Positions 1,777 to 37,596 of a stretch of 64,000 nucleotides of DNA are shown one piece after another. The translations under genes were made by a program, and so were the position numbers. The stretch is taken from the NCBI GenBank assembly GCA_037441345.1, contig JBBISJ010000001.1, positions 67,660 through 131,659 of the forward strand, read 5' to 3'. The stretch is from Chloroflexota bacterium. GTDB taxonomy: Bacteria > Chloroflexota > Dehalococcoidia > SM23-28-2 > RBG-16-64-32. Within the stretch, counting starts at the first letter, position 1, and each line of letters starts with the position of its first letter. The notes beneath the pieces were generated by a model. The model made no database searches. It was given only the letters and a program-made list of their open reading frames with translations, and was not told the origin of the DNA.

Positions 1777-3168
1777 GTGATGGAAGACGATCGGACCGCG
1801 CAGGGCGCCGCCGACGCCGGCCGGTCGGCATTCCAGGTTTCCGCTGAGACGCCTCTGCTGGAGCGCGCCGATGCCGGATCACCAGTGCTGGAGACGCTGC
1901 CCGCCGGGTCCAGGCTCGTCGTATCCCGGGACGAAGGTCCGTTCCTCTACGTGGTCACGGCGGATGACCGGTACGGCTACATCGCGGACGGGACGCCGGT
2001 CCAGCCTCTGACCTGGACGCCGGATGTCGAGCGGCAGGCTGCGGCGTCCATGGAGCGCCACCTTTACCCCCAGCGCCCGGTGTCGGCGCGAGACCTGTTT
2101 GCAGCGGGGCTGACCGGCCCCCTGGTTTCCGGCGCCGGGAGTGCCATGCCCGCGGCGGCCGCTCCGCTCTCCGTTCGAGATGACGAGCCGTTCACGCCGG
2201 CTGCGCCGCCGACGCCGGAAGAGCGGGTGTTGATCTACGACCGGATCGGCGCCAACAAGCGCCGGACGCTGCTCCTGTTGATGGCCTTCGTCGTATTCAC
2301 CACCCTTTTTTTCCTGGCGATTGGCGTCCTGCTCACGGCTAACTCCGGCTACGATCCCGCCGCCGACTGGCCCCTGGTCGTGCAGATGGGAGCGTTCGCC
2401 GCCATCCTCGCCGGGGGCATCGGCATCTTCCTCTATTTCGTGTCCAGCGCGGCCGTCCTCGCCATCTCCGGCGCGCACGAAGTGACGAAGGAGCAGGCGC
2501 CGGTACTCTACCGGATCGTCGAGAACCTGAGCATTGGGTCGGGGTTGCCGATGCCGAAGGTGTACATCATCGAGGACAGCGCGCCGAACGCTTTTGCCAC
2601 AGGCCGTAACCCCGAGAACGCCGTCGTCGCCGCGACCAGAGGGCTGCTGGACAAGCTGGAGAAACGTGAACTGGAAGCGGTGATGGCGCATGAGATGTCC
2701 CACGTCGGCAACTACGACATCCGGCTCATGACCACTGTGGCCGTGCTGATCGGCCTGGTCGCGCTCCTGGCCGACTACGCGCTGCGCTTCACCTGGTACG
2801 GCGCTGGTGCCCGGTCCAGCAACAAAGAGAAGGGTGGCGGCGCGCTCGGATTGGTCATCCTCGCCGTGGCCATCGTCTTCATCGCGGTCTCGCCGATCAT
2901 CGCTTCCATCATGCGGTCGGCGCTGTCACGGCAGCGGGAGTACCTGGCCGACTCATCCGGCGCCCTATTGTGTCGCAACCCGGACGCGCTGGCCGATGCA
3001 CTGGAGAAGATCTCGGCGGACCCCGAGCCGCTGGAGGTGGCGAACAAGGCGACGGCGCACCTGTACGTCGCCAATCCGCTGAAGGAACACGGCAGCTTCC
3101 TGAACAACCTGTTCTCCACCCACCCGCCGGTCGCGGAGCGGATCAAGCTGCTCCGCGCGATGGCGTGA
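1777..3168 (+). CDS. htpX: M48-family zinc metalloprotease (HtpX-like) with N-terminal extension
   Basis: HEMSHVGNYD (HExxH) plus downstream TM segments and C-terminal FSTHPPVAERI; classic LemA-HtpX neighbourhood. Confidence 0.8.
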   Translation: MMEDDRTAQGAADAGRSAFQVSAETPLLERADAGSPVLETLPAGSRLVVSRDEGPFLYVVTADDRYGYIADGTPVQPLTWTPDVERQAAASMERHLYPQRPVSARDLFAAGLTGPLVSGAGSAMPAAAAPLSVRDDEPFTPAAPPTPEERVLIYDRIGANKRRTLLLLMAFVVFTTLFFLAIGVLLTANSGYDPAADWPLVVQMGAFAAILAGGIGIFLYFVSSAAVLAISGAHEVTKEQAPVLYRIVENLSIGSGLPMPKVYIIEDSAPNAFATGRNPENAVVAATRGLLDKLEKRELEAVMAHEMSHVGNYDIRLMTTVAVLIGLVALLADYALRFTWYGAGARSSNKEKGGGALGLVILAVAIVFIAVSPIIASIMRSALSRQREYLADSSGALLCRNPDALADALEKISADPEPLEVANKATAHLYVANPLKEHGSFLNNLFSTHPPVAERIKLLRAMA

Positions 3169-3620
3169 TGGCGCGCGCCACCCTGAGACCCGCGCGCCCG
3201 GAGGACGTGCCGGCGATCGAGGATCTGTTGAAAGCGGAGTCGCTGCCTCCGCTGGAGATCCGGGAATGGCTCGAAACGTTCTGGGTGATCGAACGGGACG
3301 CGAGGGTTCTTGGATGCGCCGGGATCGAGTTGTACGGCGAATCGTCCGTGCTGCGGTCTGTGGCCGTTGACCCGGCTCTGCGTGGAGCAGGCGAGGGCAT
3401 GAACCTGGTGCAGCGCGCCCTCGATGAAGCGAAACGCCGCGGCGCACGACGGGCGTATCTGTTCACGGCGTCAGCGGCCGGTTTCTTCGAGCGGTTTGGC
3501 TTCCGCGCGTGCGCCGTTGAGGACTTCGACTTCGAGGCGCGGCAGTCGTGGCAGTGGCGGTTCCTGTCGACGAACGAAGCGGCCCGGAACTACGTCACCG
3601 CGATGCAGGCCGATCTCTAA
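3168..3620 (+). CDS. GNAT family N-acetyltransferase (ArsN2/amino-acid N-acetyltransferase-like)
   Basis: ATG at 3168 overlapping upstream stop (TGATG); acetyl-CoA motif VDPALRGAGEGMNLV, ~150 aa. Confidence 0.7.
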   Translation: MARATLRPARPEDVPAIEDLLKAESLPPLEIREWLETFWVIERDARVLGCAGIELYGESSVLRSVAVDPALRGAGEGMNLVQRALDEAKRRGARRAYLFTASAAGFFERFGFRACAVEDFDFEARQSWQWRFLSTNEAARNYVTAMQADL

Positions 3621-30518: not shown

Positions 30519-30548
30519 TTGCTCCCTGCGAGTGCGCGTTGATACACT
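30519..30548 (+). promoter_or_regulatory. candidate sigma70-type promoter for tRNA-Met
   Basis: -35 TTGCTC (30519-24), 18-nt spacer, -10 TACACT (30543-48), 10 nt before tRNA 5' end. Confidence 0.3.
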
Positions 30549-30558
30549 CGATTCCCGT

Positions 30559-34058: not shown

Positions 34059-35443
34059 TGGTGCGCCGGTTCCGCTGGCAGGCGCTGCTTGCTTACGTGC
34101 TGGCGGTTGCGGCTGTCGCGTTGGCCCTCGCCGCCGGCAACGGTACGGCCGTGATCATCGCGGCGGCGGTCCTCCTGGCGCTGTCGGCGCTGCTCCTCTG
34201 GCGCGCGACCGGTAAGGTGGCGGGCTTCGCGCGGATGCTGGCCGGCGCTTCCCGGGAAGTCGCGGACGGCGTGCTGACCACGCGCCTGGACCTGCCCGCG
34301 GGTGACGAGATGGGGCACGTGGCCGACGAGTTCAACCGCATGGCGTCGAAGTTGGAGAAGCGCGTGGCCGCCGCCGCCCAGGAGCGTAACCGCCTGATCG
34401 CCGCGATCAACGCCAGCGTGGACGGACTGGTCGCCGTGGACGCGCACAACACGATCACGTTTGCCAACTCCGCCGTGAAGACGCTGCTGGGCAAAGACCC
34501 GGAGCAGATGACCGGCGAAGGGTTCGCCTGGCTGATGTCCGACCCCGCCGTCATCCAGGGGTTGAAGGAGTGCCGCGCCAACCGCGTGCGCAGCAGCCAC
34601 GTGATCGAGCGGCCGGGCCGCCGATATCTGCGGGCAATCATCACTCCGATCCAGGGCGGCGGCGACTGGTCGGCGCTCGTCGTCTTCCACGACCTCACCG
34701 ACATCCGCCGGTCCGAAGTGATGCGCCGGGACTTCGTCGCCAACGTCTCGCACGAGTTACGCACGCCGCTGGCCGCAATAAAGGCGGTGGTCGAGACGCT
34801 ACAGGGAGGCGCCATCGACGAGCGGGCGACCGCCCTGGACTTCCTCCGCCGCGCCGACGACGAGGTCGACCGCCTGGTGCAGATGGTGGAGGAACTGCTC
34901 GACCTCTCCCGCCTCGAGGCCGGCGAACTCACGCTCTCGGCCGAAGGGATCGACCTCGCCGCTCTCGCCGCGATGGCCGTCGACCGGCTGCGCCCCCAGG
35001 CGGACCTGTGCGACGTTGCGATGACCCTGCATGCCCCTGACCCGGTGCCGCCGGTCCAGGGCGACCGCGCCACCCTTGAGCGCGCCATCGTGAACCTGGT
35101 GCATAACGCCGTCAAGTTCACGCCGGACGGCGGCCGGATTGACGTCTCCGTGGAGCCGGTCCGCGGCGGCGTCCTCGTCTCCGTCTCCGACACCGGCGTC
35201 GGCATCGACGAGGCCGACCTGCCGCGCGTCTTCGAGCGCTTCTACAAGGCCGACCGCGCCCGCCGGGCCGGAGGCACGGGCCTCGGGCTGGCGCTGGTCA
35301 AGCACACGGTCGAGGCGCACGGCGGTCACGTCGAGGCGCACAGCGAGGCGGGCCACGGCGCCACGTTCACGGTATGGCTTCCTGCCGTTCCTGCGGAGGA
35401 AGCGCCCGAACCGGCCACCTCAACTACGAGCCGGCGTCAGTAA
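34058..35443 (+). CDS. sensor histidine kinase (HAMP-PAS-HisKA-HATPase_c)
   Basis: H-box SHELRTPL, N/G1/G2 boxes (LVHNAVKFTP, DTGVGI, GGTGLGL); ATGGTG overlap with regulator. Confidence 0.85.
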   Translation: MVRRFRWQALLAYVLAVAAVALALAAGNGTAVIIAAAVLLALSALLLWRATGKVAGFARMLAGASREVADGVLTTRLDLPAGDEMGHVADEFNRMASKLEKRVAAAAQERNRLIAAINASVDGLVAVDAHNTITFANSAVKTLLGKDPEQMTGEGFAWLMSDPAVIQGLKECRANRVRSSHVIERPGRRYLRAIITPIQGGGDWSALVVFHDLTDIRRSEVMRRDFVANVSHELRTPLAAIKAVVETLQGGAIDERATALDFLRRADDEVDRLVQMVEELLDLSRLEAGELTLSAEGIDLAALAAMAVDRLRPQADLCDVAMTLHAPDPVPPVQGDRATLERAIVNLVHNAVKFTPDGGRIDVSVEPVRGGVLVSVSDTGVGIDEADLPRVFERFYKADRARRAGGTGLGLALVKHTVEAHGGHVEAHSEAGHGATFTVWLPAVPAEEAPEPATSTTSRRQ

Positions 35444-35533
35444 GACCGGCCCCGACGGCAGCGGGAAGCTGTCCTACAGCTCCTTCGCTCACGTGGCGAG
35501 GGCCGCACGATGAGAGGCGACGCCTGGAACCAC

Positions 35534-35610
35534 TGGTGGGCGATGCTGGACTCGAACCAGCGACCTTCTCGGTGTAAGCGAGACGCTCTGACCAACTGAG
35601 CTAATCGCCC
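35534..35610 (-). tRNA. tRNA-Val (anticodon TAC), CCA encoded
   Basis: manual cloverleaf on minus strand: GGGCGAT-TA-GCTC-AGTTGGTCA-GAGC-G-TCTCG-CTTACAC-CGAGA-AGGTC-GCTGG-TTCGAGT-CCAGC-ATCGCCC-A-CCA. Confidence 0.85.
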
Positions 35611-35778
35611 GTATTTGTGGCCTTTGTGTAGGCGAGACGCTCTGACCCCCGCCAGAGGCGGGTCCGCCTCCGGCGGAAACTGAGCTAATCGCCCGTATTT
35701 GTGGCCTTTGTGTAGGCGAGACGCTCTGACCCCCGCCAGAGGCGGGTCCGCCTCCGGCGGAAACTGAGCTAATCGCCC
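35611..35778 (-). repeat. two identical tandem 84-nt units, each a tRNA-Val 5' half (acceptor 5' strand, D-arm, anticodon stem/loop) carrying a 30-nt hairpin insertion in the D-loop plus a 15-nt spacer
   Basis: 35611-35694 and 35695-35778 identical; minus-strand reading GGGCGATTAGCTCAGTT[TCCGCCGGAGGCGGACCCGCCTCTGGCGGG]GGTCAGAGCGTCTCGCCTACAC+AAAGGCCACAAATAC. Confidence 0.85.
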
Positions 35779-35819
35779 ACGCTTGCTCCTATTGTAGGGT
35801 GGGCGTCGCGTGACGGGAA
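35779..35819 (-). promoter_or_regulatory. 41-nt conserved element (GATTCCCGTCACGCGACGCCCACCCTACAATAGGAGCAAGCGT on minus strand) with TACAAT -10-like box immediately upstream of the tRNA-half repeats
   Basis: begins directly after GIY-YIG stop; second copy at 36164-36204; TACAAT 12 nt before repeat 5' end; -35 not convincing. Confidence 0.35.
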
Positions 35820-36074
35820 TCAGGACCCGTCGCCAGCAATCTGATCGCGCAGCTTCCTGCCTGCACCCGATTTGAGGAATCGCTCACGCTGAGCTGCCTC
35901 AAAGCGAGTCGCGTATTCCTCAAAGAACAGCAGCTTGAGGGGCCGGTTTGCCCTGGTCCAGGCGTTGGAGCCGTTGTTGTGCTCACGGAGCCGGAGACCT
36001 GGGTTCCTGCTTGTCATTCCAACATACCGCTTGCCGTTCCGGAGGCTTTCGAGGACGTACACGAAGTGGGGCAT
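35820..36074 (-). CDS. GIY-YIG nuclease family protein (84 aa)
   Basis: FVYVLESLRNGKRYVGMTSRNPGLRLREHN – canonical GIY…YVG…R…E/H…N motif set. Confidence 0.8.
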   Translation of the reverse strand: MPHFVYVLESLRNGKRYVGMTSRNPGLRLREHNNGSNAWTRANRPLKLLFFEEYATRFEAAQRERFLKSGAGRKLRDQIAGDGS

Positions 36075-36096
36075 GGAAGAACTTTGTTTGTTCGAG

Positions 36097-36163
36097 TGTG
36101 CGAGACGCTCTGACCCCCCGCCAGGGGCGGGTCCGCCTCCGGTGGAGACTGAGCTAATCGCCC
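36097..36163 (-). repeat. third, diverged copy of the tRNA-Val 5'-half element with D-loop insertion, acting as 5' leader of the GIY-YIG gene
   Basis: minus-strand GGGCGATTAGCTCAGTCTCCACCGGAGGCGGACCCGCCCCTGGCGGGGGGTCAGAGCGTCTCGCAC then 22 nt to GIY-YIG ATG. Confidence 0.7.
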
Positions 36164-36204
36164 ACGCTTGCTCTATTGTAGGGCGGGCGTCGCGTGTCGG
36201 GAAT
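36164..36204 (-). promoter_or_regulatory. second copy of the 41-nt TACAAT-containing element, immediately after transporter stop codon
   Basis: GATTCCCGACACGCGACGCCCGCCCTACAATAGAGCAAGCGT (minus strand), ~90% identical to 35779-35819. Confidence 0.35.
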
Positions 36205-37596
36205 CTACGTCGGCGGCGCCGGCCCCTTTGACAGCCTCGGCACTGGCGGCCGCCAGCTCTCCCGCGCCGCTGCCCAGAAGTCGCGCATGAACGGGACGTC
36301 GCGCGCCAGGACGAATGCCGCGATGACGCAGTACACCACCGCGTATCCCACCCGGATGCTCGTGTCCGTGAACGCGAACTGCGTCACGAACATCGCCGCC
36401 AGCAGCAGCGCCTCCCAGCGGCTCATCGTCAGGCTCACCAGGATCGCCACCGCAAACAGCGATTGCGCCGCCGTCAGGAACACCTCCTCCGACTGGCGGC
36501 CGTCGAAGTCCAGCGGCGTGATCGCGCCCCCCGAAACGGCGTAGGCCAGCGGCAGGCTGCCGATCAGCAGCGTCCACTGGTTCACCTTGGACGAGATCAG
36601 GATCGTCATTCCGGCGTCGTAACGCCCTCTCACCGCCAGCATCCCGGCCAGGATGAACTCCGGTGACTCCGAGGCCAGCGGCGCCACCCACTGCACGAGG
36701 ATGAACTCGTCGATGCCGAGGTTCGCGCCGCTCTCTTTGAGGCTCTCGGCGAACGGCTCTGCTGCCGCGAAGATAACGGTGGCTGCGTAGGCGAAGATGG
36801 CGAGCACCGTGATCCGCCGCGAAATCCGCGGCAGCGCGCCGATCGCCGCCGCCGGTCCCACGAACTCCCGATCGTGCTCCGGTGGTGAGCGGGAAGCGAT
36901 GTAGAGGTACGTGGCGAAGAGCGAGAACATGACCGTGGTGTCGATCAGCGAGAGGTGGCCGCGGATCGGGATGCTGAAGCTGTAGACGGTGGCCCCGCCG
37001 AGGAAGAGGATGCCGAGGGCGTTGCTCCGCTCGACGGGCATCACGTGCTTCTTGAGCTTGCGCCAGAAGATGAAGAAGATCACCGGCCACGCGAGTCCAA
37101 CGAGCAGCCGGTTGCCGCCCGTCATGTTCGCGATCGCGAAGTGCGCGTTGTCCGGGTTATCCGGCGCTGTCCAGGCGAAGTACAGGTCCACGGCGTACTC
37201 CGGCAGCACCGCGATGAGCGCCAGCACGACCAGCGCCAGCCCGGCCGAGATCTCCGTCTCCGCCACTTCCGAAGCCCAGGTCAACAACGTGGCCGCGGCG
37301 AACACGCCGAACCCGAAGATGGCCGCTTCCAGCAGGGGTGGCAGGTGCGGGTCCCAGGCGCCGGTCACGTTCAGTATCCGCAGCAGCGGGGCAGGGAGCG
37401 CCGCCAGCGCCGCGGTGATAAGCAGTAACCATTCGCGCACGAGCAGCCGGTCCACCTCGCGGATCGGCTCGATTACGTCGTAGTGCGGTCGGTCTGCGGG
37501 GCCGTGCGCCATACAACATTCGAGTATATCCGCGGGCAGTTTGTGGGGGAACGCGAGTTTCTGGATAATAGAGTGCACCCACCGCCCTGCCCTCAC
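36205..37596 (-). CDS. CaCA-family cation/Ca2+ antiporter-like membrane protein
   Basis: polytopic; alpha-repeat-like …[10 protein letters not shown]…; true start probably internal (MAHGPADRP… ~37512). Confidence 0.55.

Follow-up and report, generated by a model that had tools for sequence, protein, structure and literature searches.

Layout of the locus

On its minus strand, the 64,000-nucleotide (nt) stretch of a Chloroflexota bacterium (GCA_037441345.1, contig JBBISJ010000001.1; hereafter the window) carries, between a gene for a Na/Ca-exchanger-like protein and an intact tRNA-Val gene, a small open reading frame (ORF) for a GIY-YIG nuclease. Partial copies of that tRNA accompany the ORF, and a double hairpin of 30 nt (HP) interrupts each of them. 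The ORF is a member of a large family of GIY-YIG genes, encoding proteins of about 80 amino acids (aa), that are positioned immediately 5′ of tRNA genes and in the same orientation. The features, in the direction in which the tRNA is read, are as follows.

36205..37596, minus strand: Na/Ca-exchanger-like gene (Pfam PF01699), a flank outside the element and the anchor for orthologous empty sites
36164..36204, minus strand: putative native tRNA-Val promoter region P, with TACAAT, directly after the exchanger stop codon (36205); assigned by comparison with empty sites
36147..36163, minus strand: tRNA-Val nt 1-17 (T17C), the upstream displaced fragment; assigned by sequence comparison
36117..36146, minus strand: diverged HP copy in the upstream tRNA fragment, with 2 mismatches, a stem pair being broken by one of them
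36075..36116, minus strand: ORF leader, a remnant of tRNA-Val nt 18-37 with one extra G, then about 21 unrelated nt before the ATG
35820..36074, minus strand: ORF for an 84-aa single-domain GIY-YIG nuclease, Slx1/UPF0213-like (Pfam PF01541)
35779..35819, minus strand: second copy of the putative promoter region, P′, 41 nt with a −10-like hexamer TACAAT, directly after the TGA of the ORF
35695..35778, minus strand: 84-nt ORF-less unit 1, identical to unit 2
35732..35761, minus strand: HP copy in unit 1
35611..35694, minus strand: 84-nt ORF-less unit 2
35648..35677, minus strand: HP copy of unit 2, located in the D-loop between nt 17 and 18 of the tRNA, fitting the family consensus
35534..35610, minus strand: intact tRNA-Val(UAC), the sole functional copy at the locus (ARAGORN; Rfam RF00005)

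A first-pass annotation, made by reading the letters of the window, had described the intact tRNA-Val, the two identical 84-nt units, the 41-nt element and the GIY-YIG ORF, and all of these are recovered where it placed them by ARAGORN, Rfam, TRF and Pfam. The tRNA-Val(TAC) at 35534-35610, which is also called by ARAGORN, matches Rfam RF00005 with 75.1 bits (E 2e-16), and TRF gives the tandem units a period of 84 with 2.2 copies and 100% match. Each unit consists of tRNA nt 1-17, the 30-nt insert TCCGCCGGAGGCGGACCCGCCTCTGGCGGG, tRNA nt 18-39 (T33C) and a 15-nt spacer; the annotation had the hairpin in the D-loop and the spacer right, and differs trivially in having ended the tRNA part at nt 38. 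When the 8 nt on either side of the HP of unit 2 are joined, they match the intact tRNA-Val without a mismatch. The third, diverged copy had likewise been seen correctly: at 36075-36204 it occupies the entire gap between the exchanger stop codon and the ATG of the ORF, and it has its own 41-nt element with 3 differences from the other copy. No Shine-Dalgarno motif is evident in the ORF leader 36075..36116.

The counts of the repeated motifs of the locus were reached in none of 100 shuffles, and no further copy of the hairpin, the tRNA part or the 41-nt element is present within the window. An Rfam search at E≤10 over 35300-36400 returned the intact tRNA only, with the units, copy 3 and the hairpin matching no family. 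As the 84-nt units and copy 3 lack a match to RF00005 even at that threshold, they are not tRNA genes. An intron in the D-loop of a functional tRNA was considered and rejected, the units being without the 3′ half of a tRNA.

The perfect tandem repeat spans 185 nt, which is longer than a short read, and assembly may have got the number of units (2) wrong. L001, an independent Logan contig, shows no difference from the window through copy 3, the ORF and the second promoter copy before it breaks inside the first unit, and so it is the number of 84-nt units and not their existence that is at risk from assembly error. The first-pass annotation had reckoned with the repeat being an artefact of assembling the tRNA gene, for which the length of the repeat and the point at which L001 stops could be cited. 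Yet copy 3, the ORF, the second promoter copy and the start of unit 1 are all present independently in L001, and an analogous array is found on the long-read-polished contig L044, so that the chance of an artefact is next to nil.

The 9-mer GATTCCCGT occurs at 30548-30556 of the window, directly before the +1 position of a tRNA-Met, and again at 35812-35820, at the junction of the ORF stop and the second promoter copy. With about 0.5 matches expected by chance in 64 kb, its recurrence is probably coincidence.

Empty orthologous sites and a probably borrowed promoter

Comparison with orthologous tRNA-Val loci, which the first-pass annotation had suggested, is possible with the flanking exchanger gene as anchor. 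In L085, where the exchanger is 90% identical, and in L086/L087, where it is 78% identical, only about 45 nt, TAGAAT among them, separate the stop codon of the exchanger from an intact tRNA-Val(TAC); neither the GIY-YIG ORF nor an HP is present at these loci. One and the same site is occupied in the window and empty in these relatives, and because the relatives have the promoter directly before the tRNA, without ORF or HP, the tract of about 670 bp in the window is an insertion. An integrase-borne tRNA island was rejected as a candidate for it, given an insert of about 670 bp with one 84-aa ORF and a duplication of the 5′ part of the tRNA.

The hexamer TA(C/G)AAT is 11-12 nt before the tRNA +1 position in both empty sites and in both copies in the window, and because its spacing to +1 equals that of the empty sites the 41-nt element is taken to be the native tRNA promoter, an assignment that comes from this comparison. 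The window has this putative promoter twice, with the upstream copy now facing the GIY-YIG ORF, and the earlier suggestion of tRNA promoter capture agrees well with this. In a comparison of the kind used for Allomyces atp6, a derived C21 (relative to L085/L086) is common to the tRNA fragments and the intact tRNA of the window, and no difference marks one of them as foreign or native.

Recurrence beside tRNA genes

Homologues of the ORF product with 64-70% identity are mostly from Chloroflexota metagenome-assembled genomes, and the same anatomy is seen on their contigs. A genome scan with an alignment of the family gave 80 loci, 79 of them non-redundant, with relatives 40-69% identical, and the hosts include Dehalococcoidia and other Chloroflexota, many Patescibacteria, WOR-3, Bdellovibrionales, Ignavibacteriaceae (Ignavibacteria), Planctomycetes and others. 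ARAGORN places a tRNA within 100 nt of the ORF in 64 of the 79 loci, on the same strand in all 64 and at the 3′ end of the ORF in 54 of these. The other 15 loci are mostly at contig ends, have tRNAs with group I-like introns that are missed by ARAGORN, or have intervening repeat units. At least 14 tRNA isoacceptors are involved, with Asn, Pro and Val foremost.

In the canonical form a promoter is followed by tRNA nt 1 to a variable position, the hairpin, 5-20 more nt of the tRNA, a short leader, the ORF and the intact tRNA, and HP precedes the start codon by 10-60 nt in most loci. The ORF lacks its own stop codon in many loci, where it ends at the U8-A9-G10 of the tRNA. L002, for instance, has the fragment GGGCGATT, the double hairpin and a degenerate D arm before the ORF, whose final codons, GTG GGC GAT TAG, coincide with the opening ten bases of an intact tRNA-Val(CAC). 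The ORF of L004 comes after an intact tRNA-Val(GAC) and ends in nt 1-10 of a second full-length tRNA copy, whose nt 17 and 18 are separated by the double hairpin. A duplicate that keeps the tRNA intact, with an adjacent remnant, is present in the window, L004, L009, L010-L022 and L044, and tandem units that contain the GIY-YIG gene are present in L002 and L008.

Local tandem duplication of a tRNA followed by decay next to an unrelated small gene needs to be weighed against this, as tRNA genes do duplicate locally and the units in the window are not recognizable as tRNAs. The occurrence of the same three-part architecture in dozens of unrelated genomes effectively refutes such a chance neighborhood, and a 30-nt insert that is identical or nearly so across phyla, with compensatory changes, tells against it too; we regard it as highly improbable.

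Several further features of these loci can be recorded. An in-frame TAG supplied by the near-universal U8-A9-G10 of the downstream tRNA is seen in L009 (1660-1690), L018 (2720-2745), L022 (2725-2745) and many others; as this stop codon is part of the tRNA, the mRNA would lose it on cleavage by RNase P at +1. On the minus strand of L002, at 2093-2842, two tandem units of 337 bp come after an intact tRNA-Met. Each has an ORF of a different GIY-YIG subfamily that ends in a copy of tRNA-Met with the single hairpin TCCGCCGGAGGCGGA in place of its D arm, and ARAGORN calls these hairpin-disrupted copies tRNA-Met. In L041 (about 2750-2950), L054 (about 2740-2950) and L063 (about 2730-2950) a tRNA-Asn directly downstream of the GIY-YIG ORF has a group I-like intron in its anticodon loop, because of which it is missed by ARAGORN, and here one tRNA gene is shared by two kinds of selfish element. 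Pseudo-tRNA copies in L005 (1905-1975) and L006 (700-770) have their anticodon and T arms replaced by CCCCGAT-GAA-ATCGGGG and CCCCGAT-TCT-ATCGGGG, a hairpin pair that differs in sequence from HP but has the same loop logic and is conserved between the two Dehalococcoidia genomes.

The double hairpin

HP consists of two 6-bp stems with 3-nt loops, the first loop being purine-rich and ending in A and the second being T-pyrimidine-pyrimidine. The consensus is T-C-N-N-C-C-R-R-A-G-G-N-N-G-A / Y-C-N-N-C-C-T-Y-Y-G-G-N-N-G-R, with the apices, CC-NNN-GG, invariant in both hairpins. Anchoring on the apices only gave 102 matches in 356 kb of GIY-YIG loci, in 84 of which all eight outer pairs are Watson-Crick, with just 4 of the 102 having three or fewer such pairs. 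Across 74 distinct variants the two-hairpin model has 98.8% of cells paired and 137 double-sided changes, versus 38.6 in shuffles (0/500).

The two hairpins of the window copy are also mutually complementary, and so the single-sequence fold of the 84-nt unit (−45.7 kcal/mol, z = −5.8) shows one long hairpin instead of the two that had been proposed for the unit at the outset; it is covariation that bears out the two. A single long hairpin for the 30-mer is rejected, since across the 74 variants it pairs no better than shuffles. The non-Watson-Crick pairs, among 592, comprise 8 G:T, 4 A:C and 7 others, with G:T not enriched, and the reverse complement of the HP motif is the HP motif itself. Both features hint that the structure may be relevant at the level of DNA rather than of RNA only. 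Expanded elements, with extra hairpins separating or lengthening the two conserved ones, are present at L012 (2390-2455 and 2746-2811) and L031 (2415-2495), and variable insertions between the conserved helices appear, from these sequences, to be tolerated.

A strict match to HP is within 250 nt of the ORF in 59 of the 79 loci, and the density near the ORF is 1.94 per kb versus 0.049 per kb in the remaining flanks. For 70 of 97 HPs the joined flanks (8+8 nt) match the neighboring tRNA with at most 3 mismatches; as the flanks rejoin to tRNA sequence, HP has usually been inserted precisely into a partial copy of this tRNA. Insertions are seen at positions 8, 12/13, 17, 28/29, 34, 39 and in the T loop, and in the Dehalococcoidia loci L006, L008 and L009 there are two independent HPs, at positions 8 and 17.

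The 84-aa protein

The window protein matches Pfam GIY-YIG PF01541 with 56.8 bits (cutoff 22.6; E 2.8e-15), and the residues Y6, Y17, G19, R28, H32 and E64 do not vary among 22 members of the family, itself among them. Its AlphaFold2 (AF2) model, with a pLDDT of 91, has the order E-E-H-H-E-H-H, which is the three-stranded sheet flanked by helices of GIY-YIG domains. A profile search of the PDB gave UPF0213 (1ywl, E 7.6e-11; 1zg2, 4.1e-10) and Slx1 (7e-4 to 0.08), with the phage homing enzyme I-TevI, which has the same catalytic fold, at 0.22; over the PDB searches together I-TevI is a weak match (E 0.2-0.4). Foldseek likewise found UPF0213, and Slx1 with a TMq of 0.64-0.67 and a root-mean-square deviation of 2-3 Å; the model superposes on Slx1/UPF0213 far better than on I-TevI or UvrC. 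The best matches in sequence or fold are 1ywl, 1zg2, 7cq2, 4xm5 and 6sei. Neither Pfam nor the AF2 model shows a second or DNA-binding domain in the 84 aa, and the protein is predicted to be a minimal Slx1/UPF0213-like nuclease. A profile search of the full library gave 1,936 representatives at 50% identity with E≤1e-10, nearly all of 70-130 aa.

The window protein matches no NCBIfam model, and with no PADLOC hit either a role in a defense system finds no support. An origin from phage is unlikely, with tblastn finding no homologue in 50,697 phage records and with the 12 viral copies of HP described below being away from tRNA and GIY-YIG genes.

HP as a dispersed mini-element

The first-pass annotation had treated the hairpin as part of the tRNA-half unit. 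HP is indeed present in each of the three copies, but it is no feature of that unit: these are copies of a double-hairpin mini-element that is independent and dispersed widely. Collections of viral contigs and metagenomes were searched with the HP motif alone. It was found in 12 viral contigs, with neither a tRNA nor a GIY-YIG gene near it in any of the 12, and in at least 120 metagenome loci. Among the metagenome matches listed there are 131 copies, of which 114 have neither a tRNA nor a detectable GIY-YIG gene within 1.5 kb, GIY-linked copies being slightly undercounted since the tblastn set used for detection overlooks some subfamilies (L115, L118). The flanks of the listed metagenome copies have the consensus TTT|HP|AAA. 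Complementarity of at least 6 pairs between the flanks is seen in 25 of 126 listed copies versus 11.9 expected, and this excess suggests that some copies sit in the loop of a larger hairpin.

HP can also insert precisely, without duplication, in frame in proteins (L113 2736-2765, L175 5565-5594, L209 1225-1254 and L154 3841-3870), where it reads S-A-x-G-G-S/P-A-S-G-G, a decapeptide such as SAEGGSASGG. The genes concerned are CCA-adding-enzyme-like and ornithine-carbamoyltransferase-like, and one encodes the G/F region of DnaJ.

Copies near tRNAs are of three kinds. The first are canonical GIY-YIG elements of other subfamilies (L102, L115, L118). The second, with an ORF-less 5′ fragment, HP and a spacer before an intact tRNA (tRNA-Tyr in L125, tRNA-Val in L211), are the exact counterpart of the 84-nt units in the window. 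The third have a 3′ fragment and HP behind an intact tRNA (L106, L143, L147, L168, L193), and to these belongs L044, a long-read-polished Moraniibacteriota contig in which, at 2835-3560, seven identical 103-nt units are downstream of an intact tRNA-Asn. Each of its units has a 20-nt spacer and tRNA-Asn nt 24-76 with HP in the anticodon stem, and the last unit is diverged with a second HP in its T loop.

HP is also seen within larger repeats with conserved flanks, at L155 (4911 and 6099), L173 (4150), L188 (3554 and 4277) and L190 (3699). An example is TTCGACA|HP|GCTCAGG...TGAGCGG, and in some GC-rich genomes HP is part of bigger repeat families.

The hairpin as a possible mobile agent

With so many copies elsewhere, the hairpin itself could be the primary mobile agent, as in REP/RAYT or IS200/605, with the GIY-YIG protein serving as its structure-specific mobilizing nuclease. 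Loops of tRNAs would be favored hairpin-loop targets, partial duplication would be the only survivable outcome in an essential gene, and the nuclease gene would be parked at a tRNA, where HP-flanked, highly expressed and duplication-buffered DNA exists. This accounts better for the dispersed copies than does a cassette centered on the ORF. In its favor are that HP is mostly unlinked to tRNA and GIY-YIG genes, that it has its own flank preference and that, besides the copies in loops of larger hairpins, those in tRNAs are mostly in or beside the D, anticodon or T arms. Precise in-frame insertion without duplication and several independent HPs in one tRNA fragment point the same way, as do the presence of a strict HP in three in four GIY-YIG loci with a 40-fold local enrichment, the almost purely Watson-Crick stems without an excess of G:U, which suggest DNA-level structure, and the resemblance of the protein to Slx1, whose family cuts branched DNA. 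However, GIY-YIG enzymes hydrolyze without covalent intermediates, and so precise cutting and rejoining of a 30-mer would need further factors; the window has no HP outside this locus; and the very regular fusion of the ORF to the tRNA +1 position resembles an ORF-centered cassette and not a parked gene. On balance an agent of this kind is unlikely, though it is the chief rival of the cassette favored below.

A structure-directed mobile system that draws on both is possible, if rather doubtful. As a GIY-YIG equivalent of REP/RAYT or IS200/605, the Slx1-like protein would recognize DNA in the form of a hairpin or three-way junction and move HP into or beside hairpin loops and T-rich sites, and its gene would persist in tRNAs through duplication and the borrowed promoter. 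The targets may be the D, anticodon and T arms of tRNAs, larger intergenic hairpins and in-frame sites in proteins, yielding the Ser/Ala/Gly decapeptide. As a further possibility, the tRNA-derived flanks of HP in the transcript may help direct the enzyme to tRNA genes.

A possible leader of benefit to the host

The tRNA half and hairpin might instead be a cis-regulatory or processing leader of a domesticated nuclease that is co-expressed with the tRNA, acting perhaps as an entry site for RNase P, E or III, as a structure that protects the 5′ end, as a protein-binding site for autoregulation or as a repeat RNA resembling an antitoxin. The position of HP 10-60 nt upstream of most start codons and the very stable predicted fold of the unit would suit this, the catalytic residues are under clear purifying selection, and since the ORF stop often belongs to the tRNA, translation to full length would compete with processing by RNase P. 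But close relatives manage without the element, whose occurrence is sporadic over many tRNA species and phyla, and HP is found also on the 3′ side of the ORF, in arrays without an ORF, in fragments of the 3′ part of tRNAs and at sites far removed from every ORF. The enrichment of G:U expected of an RNA helix is not seen, and the repeat arrays are inconstant and here not upstream of the ORF, unlike those of type III toxin-antitoxin systems. A benefit to the host is thus improbable as the explanation. A type III toxin-antitoxin system proper (ToxIN-like) was rejected: the array is downstream of the ORF, most loci have a single HP without an array, and there was no PADLOC hit.

A probable selfish cassette at tRNA genes

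The explanation we favor, with somewhat better than even confidence, is a selfish cassette centered on the ORF that colonizes tRNA genes, with the tRNA being kept by partial duplication, its promoter borrowed and the redundant copy disabled by HP. The ORF would be transcribed from the captured tRNA promoter, with the tRNA half and HP as its leader, and the nuclease may break DNA in or next to tRNA genes. From its fold, and with no DNA-binding domain, it would probably act at extruded or branched hairpin DNA and not at a long sequence. Repair by recombination between the repeated 5′ segments of tRNAs could then carry the cassette over into empty alleles and multiply it in tandem. The phage enzyme SegB and the mobile ORFs of fungal mitochondria, both described below, are precedents that lend weight to this. 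The two 84-nt units would be ORF-less derivatives that were amplified in this way, and transcription from P′ may make them into a 168-nt leader of pre-tRNA-Val, which RNase P would remove. HP would both inactivate the redundant tRNA copy and break the direct repeat that would otherwise delete the ORF.

The first-pass annotation had raised the idea of a homing-type GIY-YIG element. The empty orthologous sites and the recurrence at no fewer than 14 isoacceptors strongly favor an element of that general type, but with no DNA-binding domain in 84 aa a long tRNA-specific site is unlikely and homing in the classical sense is doubtful. As the protein is a bare Slx1-like domain, and as HP is the sole constant among the tRNA targets, structure-directed cutting is more plausible than sequence-specific homing.

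Several considerations, besides that lack of a DNA-binding domain, weigh against the favored cassette. Cleavage, transcription and mobility are all deduced from comparing genomes, and a scan with sigma-70 and terminator consensus sequences called no promoter at the locus. The intact tRNA copy stays a potential target. HP is mostly away from GIY-YIG genes and tRNAs (the 114 of 131 listed metagenome copies and the 12 of 12 viral ones), so that its link to the nuclease could be indirect. The copy in the window is noncanonical in that its ORF has its own stop codon and is not fused to the tRNA, with the second promoter copy and two ORF-less units between them, and the duplication of the promoter fits no simple single event. 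As for recent activity here, the ORF is found once in the 64 kb and the exact protein on two contigs only.

If the cassette is what it seems, a compact selfish element is present in many genomes and colonizes essential tRNA genes without killing them, especially in Patescibacteria (the candidate phyla radiation, CPR) and Chloroflexota. It would explain oddities of annotation, such as “GIY-YIG nuclease family protein” genes that overlap tRNAs, tRNA pseudogenes and short tandem arrays, and also falsely called additional tRNAs, of which the tRNA-Met copies with hairpins in L002 are an example. It would be a natural case of bacterial promoter capture, with a stop codon borrowed from the universal U8-A9-G10 of the tRNA. 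An Slx1-type nuclease and a covarying DNA hairpin would make a testable enzyme-substrate pair for UPF0213/COG2827, and the 30-nt element would be a new example of palindromic DNA inserting in frame into proteins.

Comparison with known systems

The components have analogues in free-standing homing endonucleases, mobile ORFs (mORFs), double-hairpin elements (DHEs) and GC clusters, REP/RAYT and Rickettsia palindromic elements (RPEs), and it is the combination that looks undescribed. No description of the GIY-YIG, tRNA-fragment and hairpin arrangement in bacteria was found in the searchable literature, outside of which are papers available by subscription only, so that a prior description is possible; a 2026 survey of tRNA introns and genes in Patescibacteria does not mention it. 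To our knowledge a tRNA with HP is not a known setting for UPF0213 proteins. Slx1 and UPF0213 (COG2827) have the same catalytic core as the window protein, which is unlike Slx1 in being without the zinc-finger domain; no gene for an Slx4 partner was seen in the loci read, though no search was aimed at Slx4.

RPEs are said to lie in frame in protein genes, as reportedly described by Ogata and colleagues in 2000. Other palindromic families with which HP can be compared are the DHEs and GC clusters of fungal mitochondria (PMC10085805, PMC4478555) and the REP/RAYT systems of proteobacteria (PMC3733652). Like all of these, HP is a short GC-rich double hairpin, dispersed and highly conserved across species, that is present in intergenic DNA, in RNA genes and, as with RPEs, in frame in proteins, and whose mobility is suspected; as in REP/RAYT, copies cluster at one nuclease gene. 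HP has no sequence relationship to these families and no Rfam match. It is distinct in being bacterial (Patescibacteria, Chloroflexota and others), of exactly 30 nt and with invariant CC-NNN-GG apices, in its partner nuclease being GIY-YIG and not HUH as is RAYT, and in its tight coupling to partial tRNA duplications.

Integrase islands and prophages in tRNA genes also use a tRNA as insertion site and keep the gene intact with a duplicated segment. The elements described here, in contrast, lack an integrase and measure no more than about 0.3-0.7 kb; what is duplicated is the 5′ part or internal loops of the tRNA and not its 3′ end, and HP is found in the remnant.

SegB of phages T4 and T6 is a free-standing GIY-YIG homing endonuclease in tRNA clusters (PMC2330249, PMC13096335). 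It is enriched next to tRNAs, and tandem repeats of a tRNA plus segB arise by recombination between the 5′ end of the tRNA and segB's 3′ end; with tRNA-Tyr, cleavage-triggered recombination and tandem amplification were shown experimentally (PMC13096335). The statistical association of a GIY-YIG gene with tRNA genes is common to both. SegB differs in being a multi-domain, sequence-tolerant phage homing endonuclease, whose loci are without a hairpin element or partial tRNA copies.

The mORFs of fungal mitochondria (Allomyces macrogynus atp6; Glomus atp6, atp9, cox2 and nad3) bring with them a second copy of the gene end, and the native fragment stays in place as a leftover (PMC3630166). As here, a free-standing endonuclease ORF is situated in an essential gene, a replacement part keeps that gene intact with a remnant adjacent to it, and presence or absence varies among close relatives. 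Unlike in the mORFs, the target here is a bacterial chromosomal tRNA gene and not a mitochondrial protein gene, the 5′ part and promoter are duplicated instead of the 3′ end, the nuclease is an 84-aa Slx1-like protein, and the leftover fragment is systematically interrupted by the conserved 30-nt double hairpin.

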